NCBI GenBank assembly: GCA_030066775.1
Contig: JASJAY010000001.1
Coordinates: forward strand, 4,612 to 68,611
DNA: 64,000 nt
Direction: 5' to 3'
Origin: Planctomycetota bacterium
GTDB lineage: Bacteria > Planctomycetota > PLA2 > JAEUHO01
The position numbers and the translations under genes were made by a program. Below, one piece after another: positions 11,078-56,210 of the stretch. Below the pieces are notes generated by a model, which did not search any database, was not told where the DNA came from, and saw only the letters and a program-made list of their open reading frames with translations. Position 1 is the first letter of the stretch. Every line of letters starts with the position of its first letter.

Positions 11078-11155
11078 CGGGGCGTGGCGCAGATTTGGTA
11101 GCGCGCCTGAATGGGGTTCAGGAGGTCGCTGGTTCGAGTCCAGTCGCCCCGACCA
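11078..11155 (+). tRNA. tRNA-Pro (anticodon GGG), CCA encoded
   Basis: Hand-folded cloverleaf. Acceptor CGGGGCG/CGCCCCG; D arm GCGC-AGATTTGGTA-GCGC. Anticodon arm CCTGA-ATGGGGT-TCAGG with GGG at 11113-11115. T arm GCTGG-TTCGAGT-CCAGT, discriminator A, then CCA. Confidence 0.9.
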
Positions 11156-47342: not shown

Positions 47343-48734
<1,392 letters not shown>

Positions 48735-49016
48735 TCCGACCGCGACCCGTTGTGTCCGGCCATTCGAGCCCACGCGGCAAGGTTCTGTTTCGAGATGCGG
48801 GCTAGGTGAAATTACGCAAAACGCGTGTAAGCACGCGGTCTGTGGAAACCCCATGGAGAAGCCTGCGGAGTCGCGTGGGCATTTGCGTTCCCACCAAGTG
48901 TTCCTGGGTTCCCAAAGTCGGAACCCCAACGCGCGAACGAGGTTGTGTGCACTGTGCACGAGCAATCCACAATTTGGGTGGGGTGTGTCGTGCTCACATG
49001 AGTCGCGTGCGCATTG

Positions 49017-49033
49017 TGCACAAGCGAAGTGCA
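49017..49033 (+). promoter_or_regulatory. candidate enhancer (UAS): TGCAC-N7-GTGCA inverted repeat
   Basis: TGCACAAGCGAAGTGCA is a perfect 5+5 inverted repeat with the 17-bp geometry of NtrC-type sites. It lies about 90 bp upstream of the -24 element. Nearby are tandem GTGCAC hexamers (48947-48952, 48954-48959) and AAGTGCR copies (49027, 49044, 49093). An A7 tract (49088-49094) sits between the UAS and the promoter. Confidence 0.45.
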
Positions 49034-49113
49034 TCGGGGCGCAAAGTGCGTGAAAACGTGGTTAACGGTCGATTGGCGGCCGCTCTCAAAAAAAGTGCGA
49101 AGTGGAGGAGCAT

Positions 49114-49129
49114 TGGTCCAGCCGTTGCT
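49114..49129 (+). promoter_or_regulatory. candidate sigma-54 (-24/-12) promoter
   Basis: TGGTCCAGCCGTTGCT has GG at 49115-49116 and GC at 49127-49128, the exact spacing of TGGCACG-N4-TTGCW. The -12 box TTGCT matches consensus. The -24 flank TGGTCC is imperfect. Confidence 0.55.
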
Positions 49130-49139
49130 CTCTACCTCC

Positions 49140-50437
49140 CGTCCGAAACGGACAACGATCTTTGACAGCACTGGCGATCGGACGAGACGACTAGTTGTGC
49201 ACCGATGAGTGGCGGTGCCGGGCAGCGGGCCCGGGATCTGCTGCTGCGCAACGGCGGGAAGTCGTGGATCGAGCGCACTTGTCAGACCCGACGCGCGCTG
49301 ACGAAGCGAAGGGGCAGCAATGTCCTGGAGCGGAAGCGGAGCGCGGACGTGATGACAAGGCGGAGCTGGTGGCAACACCGGCGCCCGGCGTGAACCACAT
49401 CCAATTCGTTGGCCTTCCTTTCCGCCGTAGCGGACGGAGCATCGTCTGCTGAAAGGTGAGAAACCTCACGAGAGCTGGGGGTCCGGAGACGGACCACCCG
49501 ACTCGCTCGAGCCCGAGACCCTGAGACCCGGATGGATAGGGACGTCACCCCATCCAAGGGTGCGAGGGGAGGCTCCGCGACCAAAGCGCGGGCCAGGTCG
49601 AGCGGGAGCACGCTCTGGAGAGGAACGGAACCTCAAGACGGGATCGGCGGCCGGAGCCGACGGGGGCTTGCCCCTGGACGCCCCGGTGCTGAACGGACTC
49701 GCCGCGGGAACAAGGCCCTGAAGGCGACTGCCGGCTAAAGCTCCACACCTCCGGGTGGCGGGGCGGCAGCTGGCGGCAACGGCAAGAGGGCAGGGACTCC
49801 GAGAGGAGCACCCATCGCGGTCGAGGGGAACCCCGTGAAGAGTGAAGCCCATGGGCGCTCCAGCGCGCTTGACGTGCTGGGAGGCGTGCGGTGCCGAAAG
49901 GTGCCGGGGGCCGCAAGGCCTAGTGGTGTACGCCGCGAAGGAGGTAGCCAAACCTCGCACGTGGCACGCGACGGCGGAGGGATCCGCCGTCATGACGCGG
50001 GACCACCGCGCTGACACTGTGCCGTAGGGCAGACAAAGTCCAGGAGAGGAAGCGAGGCTCCGAGCCCGGAGCGTGGCGCAAGCCGCGTGAACGGGGACGG
50101 GTCACGCCGACTCGCGAATGTCGTCCTCTGAAGGGGCGCGAAAGCGCATGGAGGGTCGCTCGAAGGCTTCGGCCGACGGGCAGCTCCACGATCGAAGACC
50201 CGAAGGGCGTTGAACGTCGAACGGGTAGGGCGGAACCCATAGCCGTCCTAGAGCGTGGAGCGTGTGTCCTCGAAGTGCCGCGGAACCCCATGAGAGGCAG
50301 CGAAGCCGGGCCGCAAGGTCCGGGGGAGCAGACACTGCGACTCGAAAACCTCTGGAGGACCGGAACAACTGGTCATCGACTCCGTCGTCAGGCTTCATCG
50401 GCCCGGGGCGTGGGCAACCACGCTCCGGGCTCTTTTC
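49140..50437 (+). ncRNA. candidate large structured RNA of unknown family (boundaries approximate)
   Basis: No credible ORF in the interval. Perfect helices are capped by GAGA (49480-49495), CTTG (49663-49674), GCAA (49909-49920), GCAA (50072-50087), GAAA (50136-50147), TTCG (50165-50174) and GCAA (50306-50323). The 3' end is terminator-like. The 5' end is inferred from the sigma-54 promoter. Confidence 0.4.
50401..50437 (+). terminator. intrinsic-terminator-like hairpin at the end of the candidate RNA
   Basis: GCCCGGGGCGTGG-GCAA-CCACGCTCCGGGC forms a 13-bp stem with one G-T pair, followed by TCTTTTC. Confidence 0.5.
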
Positions 50438-50506
50438 AATTGTGGACGCATCCGAGATCGAAACGCGCATGGATGCGGTACCGATGGGTGAGCACCATTG
50501 GCGATA

Positions 50507-50536
50507 GGGCGCCCACAAGGGGCGCCCCCTACTACC
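50507..50536. repeat. 30-nt palindromic element, left copy of an inverted pair
   Basis: GGGCGCCCACAAGGGGCGCCCCCTACTACC contains the local hairpin GGGCGCCC-ACAAG-GGGCGCCC. It is the reverse complement of 50634-50663 at 28 of 30 positions. Confidence 0.7.
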
Positions 50537-50633
50537 ACATGTCATCGCGGTGGGGGGCACCACGCCGACGTCCAACGCGCCGATCGTCGTGAACGGCACG
50601 ACACACTTTCGTCGGCCATGCGTGATCGCGGGC

Positions 50634-50663
50634 GGTAGTAGGGGGCGGCCCTTGTGGCCGCCC
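50634..50663. repeat. 30-nt palindromic element, right copy of an inverted pair
   Basis: GGTAGTAGGGGGCGGCCCTTGTGGCCGCCC contains the local hairpin GGGCGGCC-CTTGT-GGCCGCCC. Confidence 0.7.
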
Positions 50664-50751
50664 TGGCGCCATGGGTGGCCTGCAACCCCGGGTTCCCATA
50701 CGCGTTTCGTCGGGTTGATGTTCGATCCACAGTGGCGTGGATCAACGCGCC

Positions 50752-51783
50752 CTACACGATGCCGAGGTCTTCGGACTCGTCCTTGTAGGCGCGACGCATG
50801 AGGGAGGTGACGACCTCGAGGGGCTCCTTGCCCTCGTTGATGACGAGGTACATCTCCTCGGTGATCGGACCCACGAGACCGTGCTTGTGGATGAGATCGC
50901 GGATTGCGCCCACGCTCTTCGCACCCTCGGCGACCTGCTGCATGCTGGCCATGATGTCCGTGACCTGCTCGCCGCGTCCGATGCGCTCGCCGAAGGTGCG
51001 GTTGCGGCTGGCCTTCGAGTAGCAGGTCGTCATCAGGTCGCCCAGACCGCTGAGTCCGAAGAAGGTCTCGCGCTTGCCGCCGAGCGCGACGCCGAGTCGC
51101 GCCATCTCGAGCAGCCCGCGGGAGACCAACGCCGCCTTCGCGTTGACCCCCAGGCGCATGCCGTCGCACATGCCGGCCGCCAGCGCGATGACGTTCTTGA
51201 GCACGCCGCCGAGCTCGACGCCGATGAGGTCGGGATTCGAGTAGGCGCGGAACGCATCGCCGGAGAGCGTCGCCTGGATGCGTCGCGAGAGATCGAGCGA
51301 GGCGCTCGACACGACCGTGGCCGCCGGCTTGCCCTCCGCAATCTCGCGCGCGATGTTCGGACCGGACAGGACCGCGATCGTGTGCTTCGGTCCGGCCACC
51401 TCCGCGAGCACCTGGGTCGGACGCATCAGCGTGCCCTGCTCGAGGCCCTTCGAGACGCTCACGATCGGCAGGTCCTCGGGGACGCTCTGCGCATGCTGCG
51501 CCCACACGTCGCGCAGGAACGTGGTGGGCACCGCCGAGATCAGCAGGTCCGCGCCGTCGACCAGGTCGGTGAAGCGGCTGCAGACCCGCACACCCTCGGG
51601 TAGGTCGAAGCCGGGGAGGTAGCGCGGGTTGTGCCGGCTCTCCTCCATCAGCGCCGCGTAGTGCGCGTCGTACGACCAGATCGCGACGTCGTGGCCCGCA
51701 GCGCGGAGCAGCATCGCCAGCGCGGTGCCCCAGCCGCCGTCGCCCACGACCACGATCTTCTCGAACGGTTGGACGGCGTTCAC
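50752..51783 (-). CDS. gpsA: NAD(P)H-dependent glycerol-3-phosphate dehydrogenase
   Basis: Track ORF 50752..51912 trimmed to GTG 51783 after GGGGAGGG. Rossmann motif VVVGDGGWGTALA. Full-length GpsA-like sequence (GPNIAREIA, LKNVIALAAGM). Confidence 0.9.
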   Translation of the reverse strand: MNAVQPFEKIVVVGDGGWGTALAMLLRAAGHDVAIWSYDAHYAALMEESRHNPRYLPGFDLPEGVRVCSRFTDLVDGADLLISAVPTTFLRDVWAQHAQSVPEDLPIVSVSKGLEQGTLMRPTQVLAEVAGPKHTIAVLSGPNIAREIAEGKPAATVVSSASLDLSRRIQATLSGDAFRAYSNPDLIGVELGGVLKNVIALAAGMCDGMRLGVNAKAALVSRGLLEMARLGVALGGKRETFFGLSGLGDLMTTCYSKASRNRTFGERIGRGEQVTDIMASMQQVAEGAKSVGAIRDLIHKHGLVGPITEEMYLVINEGKEPLEVVTSLMRRAYKDESEDLGIV

Positions 51784-54642: not shown

Positions 54643-56210
54643 GTCGTCGCGACGACCCGGTGGCGCTGGCGCTCACGCGCGACTTGCTCGAGAGCGTGGC
54701 CGAGGAGATGGCGGCCGTGTGCATCCGCACCGCCGTGTCCCCGAACGTGAAGGACCGCCGCGACCTGAGCGCGGCCGTCTTCGATGCCAAGGGCGTGATG
54801 GTCGCCCATGCCGCGCACATCCCCGTGCACCTCGGCGCGATGCCCCTGTCCGTGCGCGCCGTGCTCGACACGTGCCCGCTCGAGCCCGGGGACGTCGCGC
54901 TCGTGAACGACCCGTACGCCGGCGGCACGCACCTGCCCGACATCACGGCCGTGCGCGCCGTCTTCGATCCCGCGACCCAACGCCGTGCGTTCCTCGTCGC
55001 GGTGCGCGCGCACCATGCCGACGTCGGCGGCGCGGTTCCCGGCTCGATGGCGCCGGCCGACGACGTGTACGCCGAGGGCCTGCGCATCCCGCCGGTCCGC
55101 TGGGTCGTGAACGAGACGCCGGATCCCGGCGTCACCTCCCTGCTGCTCTCGAACATGCGCGACGCGGACGAGCGGCGCGGGGACTTGGCCGCCCAGGCCG
55201 GCGCGCTGCGGCTCGGCGAACGCCGCTTGCGCGAGCTCGCCGCGGGCGCCGGCGGCCTCACGCGATTGGCGCGACGCGGCGCTTCGCTCGTGCGCTACGC
55301 CGGGCGGTTAGCCGCCGCGGCGCTCGAGCGATTGGCCGACGGCAGCGCGAAGGCGCGGCTCGACCTGGAGGTCGACGGCGTCGACGGCAAGCCCGCGCGC
55401 GTCGCCGTGCGACTCACCAAGCAAGGCACGCGTCTGACCGTCGACTTCAGCGGGACGACAGGGCCGGTCGGCATGGGCTTGAACGCGCCACGCGCCGTCA
55501 CCCAGAGCGCCGTCTACTACTTCGTGCGCTGCCTCTGTCCGGACGGGACACCGACGAACGACGGGCTGATGGAGCATGTCGACGTCGTGGTGCCCGACGG
55601 CTGCCTGCTGGCCGCACGCCCGCCCGCGCCGGTCGCGGGCGGCAACGTCGAGACGAGTCAGCGCGTCGTCGACGCCCTCTGGCTCGCAGCGGCGCGGCTG
55701 TGGCCGGGCCGGGTGCCCGCGCCCGGCTGCGGCACGATGTCGAACTGGACCTTCGGCCGTGCGCCCGACGGGCCGCCGATGCCCTCGTACTACGAGACGA
55801 TCCCCGGTGGGGCCGGCGGGGGTCCCGACGGGGCCGGCGCCGACGCGATCCAGCAGCACATGACGAACACGCGCGGCACGCCGGTCGAGGTGCTCGAGGC
55901 GCGCTGGCCGGTGCGCGTCGAGCGGCTGGCCCTCCGGCCGCGGAGCGGCGGAGCCGGCAAGCAGGCGGGCGGGCGCGGCGTGATCCGCGAGGTCCGCTTC
56001 CTCGAACCGGCCGTCGTCTCGCTGATGATGACGCGCCACGCCACGCCCCCGCCGGGCGTCGCCGGCGGCAAGCCCGGACGCGCGGGCCGCGTGACGCTCG
56101 TGCGCGGCGGTCGGGCCCGCCGCCTCGACCCCCGAGCGCGCGTGGACATCCGCCCCGGCGACGTGCTCCGGATCGAGACCCCGGGTGGCGGTGGTTGGGG
56201 GCGCCCTTGA
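54639..56210 (+). CDS. hyuB: hydantoinase/oxoprolinase family protein, B subunit
   Basis: Track ORF 54588..56210 trimmed to ATG 54639, which overlaps the hyuA stop as ATGA. SPNVKDRRDLSAAVFD and NDPYAGGTHLPD are typical of hydantoinase B. Confidence 0.85.
   Translation: MSRRDDPVALALTRDLLESVAEEMAAVCIRTAVSPNVKDRRDLSAAVFDAKGVMVAHAAHIPVHLGAMPLSVRAVLDTCPLEPGDVALVNDPYAGGTHLPDITAVRAVFDPATQRRAFLVAVRAHHADVGGAVPGSMAPADDVYAEGLRIPPVRWVVNETPDPGVTSLLLSNMRDADERRGDLAAQAGALRLGERRLRELAAGAGGLTRLARRGASLVRYAGRLAAAALERLADGSAKARLDLEVDGVDGKPARVAVRLTKQGTRLTVDFSGTTGPVGMGLNAPRAVTQSAVYYFVRCLCPDGTPTNDGLMEHVDVVVPDGCLLAARPPAPVAGGNVETSQRVVDALWLAAARLWPGRVPAPGCGTMSNWTFGRAPDGPPMPSYYETIPGGAGGGPDGAGADAIQQHMTNTRGTPVEVLEARWPVRVERLALRPRSGGAGKQAGGRGVIREVRFLEPAVVSLMMTRHATPPPGVAGGKPGRAGRVTLVRGGRARRLDPRARVDIRPGDVLRIETPGGGGWGRP

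Follow-up and report, generated by a model that had tools for sequence, protein, structure and literature searches.

The stretch of DNA analysed here (the window) comprises 64,000 nucleotides (nt) of contig JASJAY010000001.1 from a Planctomycetota metagenome-assembled genome (MAG). Within it a gene for a 463-amino-acid (aa) sigma-54 enhancer-binding protein (positions 47343..48734, plus strand; called the activator below) faces the convergent gene gpsA (50752..51780, minus strand), and a gap of 2017 nt separates the two stop codons (48734 and 50752). An initial annotation of the window, made from the sequence alone, had proposed that positions 49140-50437 of this gap carry a large structured RNA of no recognisable family, and the proposal is upheld by the Rfam searches, the conservation, the covariation and the codon-position tests described below. 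The plus strand of 49140-50437 is a single transcription unit in which a conserved sigma-54 promoter is followed by a short leader, then by a long structured RNA and lastly by an intrinsic terminator; the span that had been proposed coincides with the primary transcript, from its predicted start to its terminator, and the mature RNA occupies positions 49167-50395 or thereabouts. It is very probable, in our view, that a new family of noncoding RNA (ncRNA), very large and highly structured, is encoded in the gap with a sigma-54-type unit of its own.

The proposal had been built on ten short hairpins, all of which are present in the sequence where they were reported, and on an apparent abundance of stable loops. 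The latter was confirmed when perfect stems that have 4 or more base pairs (bp) and are closed by GNRA, UUCG or CUUG loops were counted mechanically: the plus strand of 49140-50437 has nine such stems and its minus strand has none, compared with a mean of 0.45 per 1.3-kb interval in the rest of the 64 kb and a maximum of three anywhere on the minus strand. The RNA strand is also purine-rich, with an AT skew of about 0.3 and a GC skew of about 0.13. Searches of the gap with the 4227 models of Rfam 15, which include OLE, GOLLD, ROOL, raiA, HEARO, RNase P, tmRNA, 6S, the group I and II introns and the small ribozymes, gave no family match at the gathering thresholds, and a permissive search (E up to 10) of 48700-50800 gave noise only (best scores 13-20 bits, E 1.9-4.1, with miRNA and snoRNA models). 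We searched the literature and found no description of this RNA.

Homologous sequences, 65-70% identical, are present downstream of orthologous activator genes, as the annotation had anticipated. The activator matches a protein of a Planctomycetota MAG with 100% identity. Its full-length orthologues, 55-71% identical, form about 90 clusters, and all of the named ones are from Planctomycetota MAGs; all carriers of the RNA that were found are likewise MAGs. The annotation had proposed a search for relatives in Myxococcota and other high-GC genomes; the host is a Planctomycetota MAG and not a myxobacterium. Five orthologous loci (L001, L002, L083, L084 and L085; our L numbers designate loci and contigs) each have 1.5-1.9 kb of "empty" sequence behind the activator gene. 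In the first four of these, roughly 1 kb matches window positions 49451-50437 by blastn with 65-68% identity; L085 has short blastn matches only, yet when the six loci are aligned it can be followed over the full length of the RNA. A 33-nt degenerate DNA pattern, derived from a stretch without variation among the six loci (window 49829-49861), matched 115 contigs when a metagenome collection was scanned with it, and a scan of viral contigs for the RNA gave no matches. The MAG contigs with DNA copies range from 47 kb to 2.1 Mb, and the RNA is single-copy and syntenic. A genome scan with the activator protein, dominated by generic AAA+ motifs, gave 80 loci of activator paralogues (L003-L082); these were searched with nhmmer as a negative control, and the RNA was not found in them. 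Two of the contigs matched by the pattern, L118 and L139, form a divergent RNA clade with only weak similarity to the others (125-140 bits over most of the model).

Seventy-eight of the contigs and the six genomic loci were aligned (84 sequences, mean identity 69%, minimum 55%, effective number about 60), and about 40% of the alignment columns are at least 90% conserved. The consensus fold calculated by RNAalifold from these 84 sequences has 329 pairs in about 50 helices that are arranged in several multi-branched domains. Among the 562,000 column pairs, 35 of the 50 that covary most strongly are predicted base pairs, and the remaining strong ones mostly reflect a split of the sequences into two clades. 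Circularity was removed by cross-validation, in which the structure was predicted from one half of the sequences and scored on the other. In the held-out half 92.5% of the cells are standard pairs and 224 of 328 pairs are double-changed (1590 cells); controls in which the partners were slid by 1-3 columns gave about 41% paired, about 105 pairs and about 300 cells, and column shuffles gave 81%, 134 pairs and 495 cells. An independent check on a 164-nt domain in 32 diverse sequences found 95.5% paired and compensatory change at 27 of 37 pairs, a number that none of 500 shuffles attained and that compares with 6-11 in slid controls. The massive compensatory change that the annotation had called for is thus present in the homologous regions, and a structured non-coding RNA whose base pairs are kept by compensatory substitution beyond controls is strongly supported.

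Could the gap instead hold a missed protein-coding gene on the minus strand? Gene callers have placed minus-strand open reading frames (ORFs) there in L001 (7816-8697, 293 aa) and L084 (7901-8746, 281 aa), and the median stop-free stretch on that strand is about 285 aa. The mismatch rates at the three codon positions are, however, flat on the minus strand (0.302/0.300/0.300) and also on the plus strand (0.293/0.296/0.300), there is no period-3 peak, and alignment gap runs are mostly not multiples of 3. The 3-nt periodicity and codon-position bias that would mark a gene overlooked by the annotation are therefore not seen. Agreement in codon phase among the sequences is 0.42-0.47 (0.42 on the minus strand), so the reading frame is not conserved, and the covariation matches helices rather than coding. 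Long minus-strand frames are expected from composition, since T makes up 12% of the RNA strand and the 95th percentile of shuffled sequences is 301 aa. The two antisense ORFs have no Pfam domain, and the window itself has only broken frames on the minus strand over the RNA. The probability of a minus-strand gene is negligible in our estimation; the hypothetical proteins of L001 and L084 are compositional artefacts of an A-poor minus strand that have been mis-annotated.

The covariation-supported model retains most of the individual hairpins that had been listed, six or seven of the ten agreeing with it. Those at 49480-95, 49971-90, 50165-74 and 50306-23 are conserved helices of the consensus. 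Two more, at 49663-74 and 50072-87, are present but lie mostly within window-specific insertions at helix tips (49668-80 and 50074-87, respectively), and the one at 49909-20 is present immediately 3' of another such insertion (49870-904). Two have been replaced by long-range helices that covary: CGCGG-N5-CCGCG (49996-50010) gives way to the pairing 49917-26/50003-12, and GCGC-GAAA-GCGC (50136-47) to 50133-47/50275-89. The fold has 17 hairpin loops; ten of them are tetraloops, with GNRA the commonest type, and two have an invariant GAGA sequence. It also has 13 symmetric 3x3 internal loops, about ten of which share an AnG strand opposite a GnA strand and are flanked by short helices of the GAGAG/CUCU or GGG/CCC type; AA to GG covariation occurs at the edges of two 3x3 loops, and several copies have GGA at the border of loop and helix. 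This repeated 3x3 module, the processing to a mature RNA clamped by a helix, and the head-to-tail junction contigs (both below) are features that the annotation did not foresee.

Four more specific structural ideas were considered and rejected. K-turn or sarcin-ricin identity does not suit the 3x3 loops, whose symmetric geometry fits neither motif. Kissing between two conserved 9-10-nt loops that contain CAUG is opposed by the lack of obvious complementarity or covariation between them. A hammerhead, brought to mind by CUGANGA at the 5' end, is excluded by the pairing of CUGACGA with UCGUCAG and by the covariation between the two. Finally, positions 50062-76 are a perfect 15-nt complement of the 3' arm of the terminator (50418-50432), but an antiterminator is not credible as the complement is window-specific: it lies within a variable helix of the RNA, is missing from the five other genomic loci and may have arisen when that arm was duplicated locally.

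The mature RNA (49167..50395, plus strand) is about 1229 nt long in the window, where the nhmmer match covers 49173-50392 with 655 bits. The unit length in its relatives is 1063-1101 nt, and the window copy is longer because of four window-specific insertions at helix tips, the three mentioned above and one at 49275-361. The ends of the RNA are brought together by a closing helix, P1, in which the 5' strand AGC-A-CUGGCGA (49167..49177) pairs with the 3' strand UCGUCAG-GCUU (50385..50395); the latter also forms the mature 3' end, as seen in 24 contigs that stop 1-2 nt past ..CAGG(C) and in the junction contigs, where the 3' end is at ..CAGGCUU. P1 shows compensatory variants in several contigs and loci: CUGAUGA/UCAUCAG in L134 and L159, CCGACGA/UCGUCGG in L084, L085 and L102, and, in the divergent contig L118, the pair CAACGACUC/GAGUCGUUG, which is wholly different in sequence yet paired (the other divergent contig, L139, is 3'-truncated). 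Upstream of P1 is a 5' leader (49140..49166, plus strand) that is removed from the mature RNA. It contains a hairpin, GUCCG-AAA-CGGAC (49141-53), that is kept with different sequences in L001, L002 and L083, and then a motif, GAUCUUUGACA (49157-67), of which UCUUUGA(C/A)A is nearly invariant across loci. This motif, (G)AUCUUUGA(C/A)A, is almost invariant though absent from the mature RNA, and in one clade the primary transcript begins with it. Recognition or processing may be what it signals. Downstream of P1 a terminator scan identified an intrinsic terminator (50400..50437, plus strand) with a 14-bp GCAA-capped stem (50400-50431) followed by CTTTTC; its hairpin is kept with covarying arms in all six loci and is missing from most transcript contigs.

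Removal of the leader and the terminator hairpin is seen in the ends of about 60 contigs of transcript size. About 90 of the 115 metagenome contigs are 1004-1140 nt long, and their boundaries are the RNA's own paired termini; the few longer ones are genomic. When the 61 contigs that span the whole model are compared, 27 start at most 1 nt from the T of CTGACGA (CTGGCGA in the window, 49171-77), 24 end within 1 nt of each other just past ..TCGTCAGG(C), and 14 keep 15-33 nt of the 5' leader. Nothing would cause assemblies of DNA to stop where an RNA starts and ends, and we therefore infer that the contigs of about 1.0-1.14 kb were assembled from the complementary DNA (cDNA) of an RNA that is abundant and about 1.07 kb long. 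Nucleases would trim the precursor to the base of P1.

How might synthesis of this RNA be controlled? Its predicted start, near 49140, lies just downstream of a sigma-54-type promoter, TGGTCCAGCCGTTGC (49114..49128, plus strand), which has GG at -24 (TGG, 49114-16) and GC at -12 (TTGC, 49125-28). The promoter had been predicted by the annotation, and the comparison bears this out: GG-N10-GC keeps the same distance in each of the six genomic loci and in those metagenome contigs whose upstream DNA is genuine, 15 copies in all, 13 of which were located by regular expression and two (L178 and L202) read by eye. Farther upstream, conserved columns of the six-locus alignment mark a dyad motif GTGGAAAC (48842-49), a palindrome TGGGCATTTGCGTTCCCA (48876-93) and an inverted repeat TCCACAAT / ATTGTGCA (48966-73 / 49013-20). 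The patterns TCCACAA-N41-TTGTGGA and TGGGNA-N6-7-TNCCCA recur at fixed distances in the other loci, and these dyad motifs (48842..49020) are probably binding sites (upstream activating sequences) for the activator. An A/T-rich tract just upstream of the promoter (49088..49094, an A-run in the window) has an A- or T-run as its equivalent in L001, L002, L083, L158 and L195 and is a possible bending or IHF-type site. Together these conserved elements suggest that production of the RNA depends on sigma-54 and on the activator.

The activator itself has a divergent receiver-like N-domain, an AAA+ sigma-54 interaction domain, a lid domain and a Fis-type helix-turn-helix (Pfam PF00158, PF25601 and PF02954). 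Its residues 1-135 (window 47343-47747) have no Pfam match. The AlphaFold model of this N-domain (pLDDT 84.6) has a receiver-like fold, and its best matches in the PDB are response-regulator receiver domains (TM 0.5-0.65, with weak E-values). The acidic pair that normally follows strand 1 is replaced by GRGG, and D64, at the usual position of the phospho-acceptor, is nearly invariant; the N-domain is thus a divergent receiver that is possibly not phosphorylated in the usual way, and it may be a pseudo-receiver.

The activator is the only gene consistently linked to the RNA. It lies directly upstream in 12 of 12 informative loci, as orthologues of 55-71% identity in L001, L002, L083, L084 and L085. 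Six metagenome contigs extend 500 nt or more upstream of the RNA, and its C-terminus is there in the same orientation in every case. The conserved order of activator, gap and gpsA that the annotation expected holds only in its first part, as gpsA is a frequent but not obligatory neighbour that lies outside the unit: gpsA-plsY is downstream in L002, L084, L085, L158 and L093, and in L001 and L083 other genes are found there, so the conserved partner is the activator and not gpsA. These arrangements bear on the idea that the RNA acts in cis, either as a long 3' untranslated region of the activator mRNA or as an antisense or roadblock regulator of gpsA. Its location between the two genes in most loci is what such an element would need, but it has a conserved promoter of its own and a terminator ahead of gpsA, it is found as discrete contigs without activator or gpsA sequence, and gpsA is not its neighbour in L001 and L083. 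In addition L086 and L087, two loci with distant homologues of the activator (47-53% identity), keep the order activator-gpsA with 325-450 nt between the genes, and the RNA was not found in either by nhmmer. We therefore regard a cis-acting element as very improbable. Downstream of the activator genes of L086 (7282-7739) and L087 (7534-7857), which are from genomes of lower GC content, the motifs GTGGAAA, TGGGAAT..ATTCCCA and TCCACAA are kept, and neither locus has the large RNA or an obvious -24/-12 promoter.

Seven of 113 contigs (L123, L128, L134, L167, L171, L199 and L200) are circularly permuted or longer than one unit, and each contains a junction of 3' end to 5' end. Six of them have terminal redundancy, and in five of these it is free of mismatches: 123 nt at a period of 1066 nt in L128, 92 nt at 1091 nt in L167, 120 nt at 1063 nt in L171, 71 nt at 1064 nt in L199 and 123 nt at 1101 nt in L200. 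The sixth, L123, has a 342-nt repeat with 3 mismatches. At the junctions ..CAGGCUU is joined to (C)AAGCAC.., AGCAC.. or GCAC.., and by these sequences the mature RNA begins and ends where P1 does. The exception is L200, in which the end of a complete terminator hairpin is joined to AAGCAC; it follows that removal of the leader is independent of removal of the terminator. Because the 5' site wanders by a few nt, joining of ends that a helix has placed side by side is favoured over a precise ribozyme or splicing reaction, the favoured agent being either a ligase or jumping by reverse transcriptase.

These junctions raise the possibility that the mature functional form is a covalently closed circle, in which P1 would align the ends for sealing by a cellular RNA ligase and the product would be proof against exonucleases. 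Seven independent contigs from different samples carry the junction, five of them have mismatch-free redundancies of 71-123 nt at periods of 1063-1101 nt, and the natural 3' end should not be preferred if fragmentation were followed by random template switching. In two of the contigs the overlap is exactly 123 nt, which equals the largest k of Joint Genome Institute metatranscriptome assembly and so would mark closed-loop unitigs, a lead and not a test. On the other side, about 94% of the contigs are linear with reproducible ends, the 5' sites at the junctions range from -2 to about -10 and L200 retains its whole terminator, duplexed ends could favour jumps by reverse transcriptase, and no ligase gene is linked to the RNA. 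Our estimate for the circle as the functional form is a little short of even, as it is for circularity in vivo.

A ribozyme or self-processing element, for example a self-circularising RNA like a group I intron or a degenerate intron, would also account for head-to-tail junctions, and the size and complexity of the RNA and its high proportion of nearly invariant columns are like those of known large ribozymes. Neither the gap nor the junction contigs gave an Rfam match to an intron or small ribozyme, however (the junction contigs matched no model), the junction site is not fixed, and the RNA has its own promoter and terminator in an intergenic location without flanking exons. It is moreover single-copy and syntenic, hence not mobile. 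We think a ribozyme quite improbable.

The observations above can be assembled into the following pathway. The NtrC-type activator, encoded just upstream, would bind the dyad sites 120-270 bp upstream of the promoter and, judging from their conservation, drive the sigma-54 promoter at 49114-49128. Transcription would then proceed from near 49140 to the intrinsic terminator at 50400-50437. The leader of about 27 nt and the terminator hairpin are removed, the termini of the mature RNA are clamped by the 11-bp helix P1, and its body folds into several multi-branched domains with some 50 helices that covariation supports. Samples exist in which the 3' end appears to have been joined to the 5' end, and since the junction positions vary by a few nucleotides this would be circularisation of helix-juxtaposed ends by a ligase.

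What such an RNA might do is suggested by its having about ten copies of one loop module in a molecule that is end-protected and abundant. Our tentative guess, which we would put somewhat lower than an even chance, is that it acts in trans as a stable, multivalent scaffold or sponge that takes up a protein or other copies of the RNA and is made upon a signal sensed by the activator. An alternative is a homo-oligomer made of RNA only, as has been reported for ROOL, GOLLD and OLE (PMC12286853), in which the 3x3 and GNRA loops would be geometric or docking modules. The RNA is larger than those three and has many GNRA tetraloops and repeated internal-loop modules, and its loci have no linked gene for a protein partner; against this, it has no sequence or structure similarity to ROOL, GOLLD or OLE that Rfam detects, and the two conserved 9-10-nt loops have no obvious complementarity or covariation. 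We consider such an oligomer unlikely, and prefer the scaffold or sponge; the probability that is left falls to functions other than those named here. The most complete version of our proposal, a chromosomal RNA of more than 1 kb that is made on demand by a dedicated sigma-54 activator, excised, circularised in vivo and used as a multivalent platform through its roughly ten loop modules, is in our estimation less likely than not, though a real possibility.

Several considerations weigh against this overall picture. The cDNA status of the short contigs is deduced from their lengths and shared ends and not from sample metadata; these transcript-type contigs come from about a hundred environmental assemblies. 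The G-test ranking of covarying columns is confounded by the two major clades. A bare sigma-54 motif is not rare in the window (6 matches where 4.7 are expected), so the support for the promoter is its conservation and context, and the apparent dependence on rpoN and the activator is likewise deduced from conservation. Junction contigs number only 7 of 113 and differ in their junction sites, other assembly artefacts are present (for example, an inverted segment in L154), and an origin of the junctions in reverse transcription or assembly is possible. The scaffold or sponge function, lastly, is argued wholly from architecture, and no partner gene is linked.

How does this RNA compare with known systems? 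OLE, GOLLD, ROOL and raiA are similar in having hundreds of nt of multi-domain covarying structure and in being GNRA-rich, non-coding and abundant; nor can their function, unknown or partly known, be read from their sequence. They are about 0.2-0.8 kb long, compared with 1.07-1.23 kb here. The present RNA differs in having no Rfam match, a Planctomycetota host, no matches in viral contigs (it is not prophage-associated), a dedicated sigma-54 activator, processing of leader and terminator, the 3x3 module and the junction forms. It is a new class that can be placed loosely among the "large ornate ncRNAs" and is outside every Rfam family. In its regulation it resembles the small RNAs that adjoin, and are controlled by, sigma-54 enhancer-binding proteins, such as Qrr1 with LuxO in Vibrio, Pxr in Myxococcus and YrlA with RtcR in Salmonella, where a gene for an NtrC-family activator also lies beside a sigma-54 promoter that drives an ncRNA. 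Those RNAs are about 100 nt long and most are Hfq-dependent base-pairing regulators (YrlA is Y-RNA-like and about 110 nt), whereas the one described here is ten times larger and has a rigid conserved fold and no evident seed region.

The repetition of a short motif on a stable RNA recalls the sponges CsrB/RsmZ and ciRS-7/Cdr1as, and ciRS-7 is circular; the likeness is one of design only. The repeat here is a symmetric AnG/GnA internal loop and not GGA in hairpin loops, and the hairpin loops are mainly GNRA or GAGA without the multiple loop GGA of a Csr/Rsm-type sponge. In archaeal circular pre-rRNA, intron circles and group I intron circles, flanks pair and are removed and the ends are joined. 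The archaeal processing-stem circles are thus similar in outcome, but here the host is bacterial, there is no bulge-helix-bulge geometry, the ends are paired up to their termini, the junction is variable and there is no intron core. The viroid-like and Obelisk covalently closed circular RNAs found in metatranscriptomes (10.1101/2022.07.19.500677; PMC13096302) are similarly contigs of about 1 kb with terminal redundancy. The present RNA, unlike them, is DNA-encoded, in 12 DNA loci with promoter, terminator and neighbouring gene, is multi-branched and not rod-like, and has no ORF and no ribozyme match.

To our knowledge few classes of large complex bacterial ncRNA have been described (rRNA, RNase P, tmRNA, the group I and II introns, OLE, GOLLD, ROOL and raiA), and we know of none outside the rRNAs that is larger than the RNA reported here. 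Each of the known large classes is tied to basic cell biology or to an unusual RNA architecture. The present system offers a clean regulatory handle, with one activator, one sigma-54 promoter and defined processing, and, thanks to its modular loop repeat, experiments on binding are straightforward. Should the head-to-tail forms prove real, it would be a natural bacterial system for stable circular RNA, and if the complete proposal is true, the RNA would be the first large circular structured ncRNA of bacteria and their largest ncRNA class outside the ribosome. Public annotations meanwhile call spurious hypothetical proteins over the locus.

Two other features of the window were noted. The sole Rfam match at gathering level in the 64 kb is a tRNA gene at 11078-11152. 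Between the terminator of the RNA and gpsA lies a 57-nt inverted-repeat pair (50493-50549/50621-50677) that is 79% complementary, has the core GGGGCGCCCCCTACTACC and resembles a repetitive extragenic palindrome (REP) or miniature inverted-repeat transposable element (MITE); a weaker third copy of this core is found 5.5 kb away, at 56190-56207.

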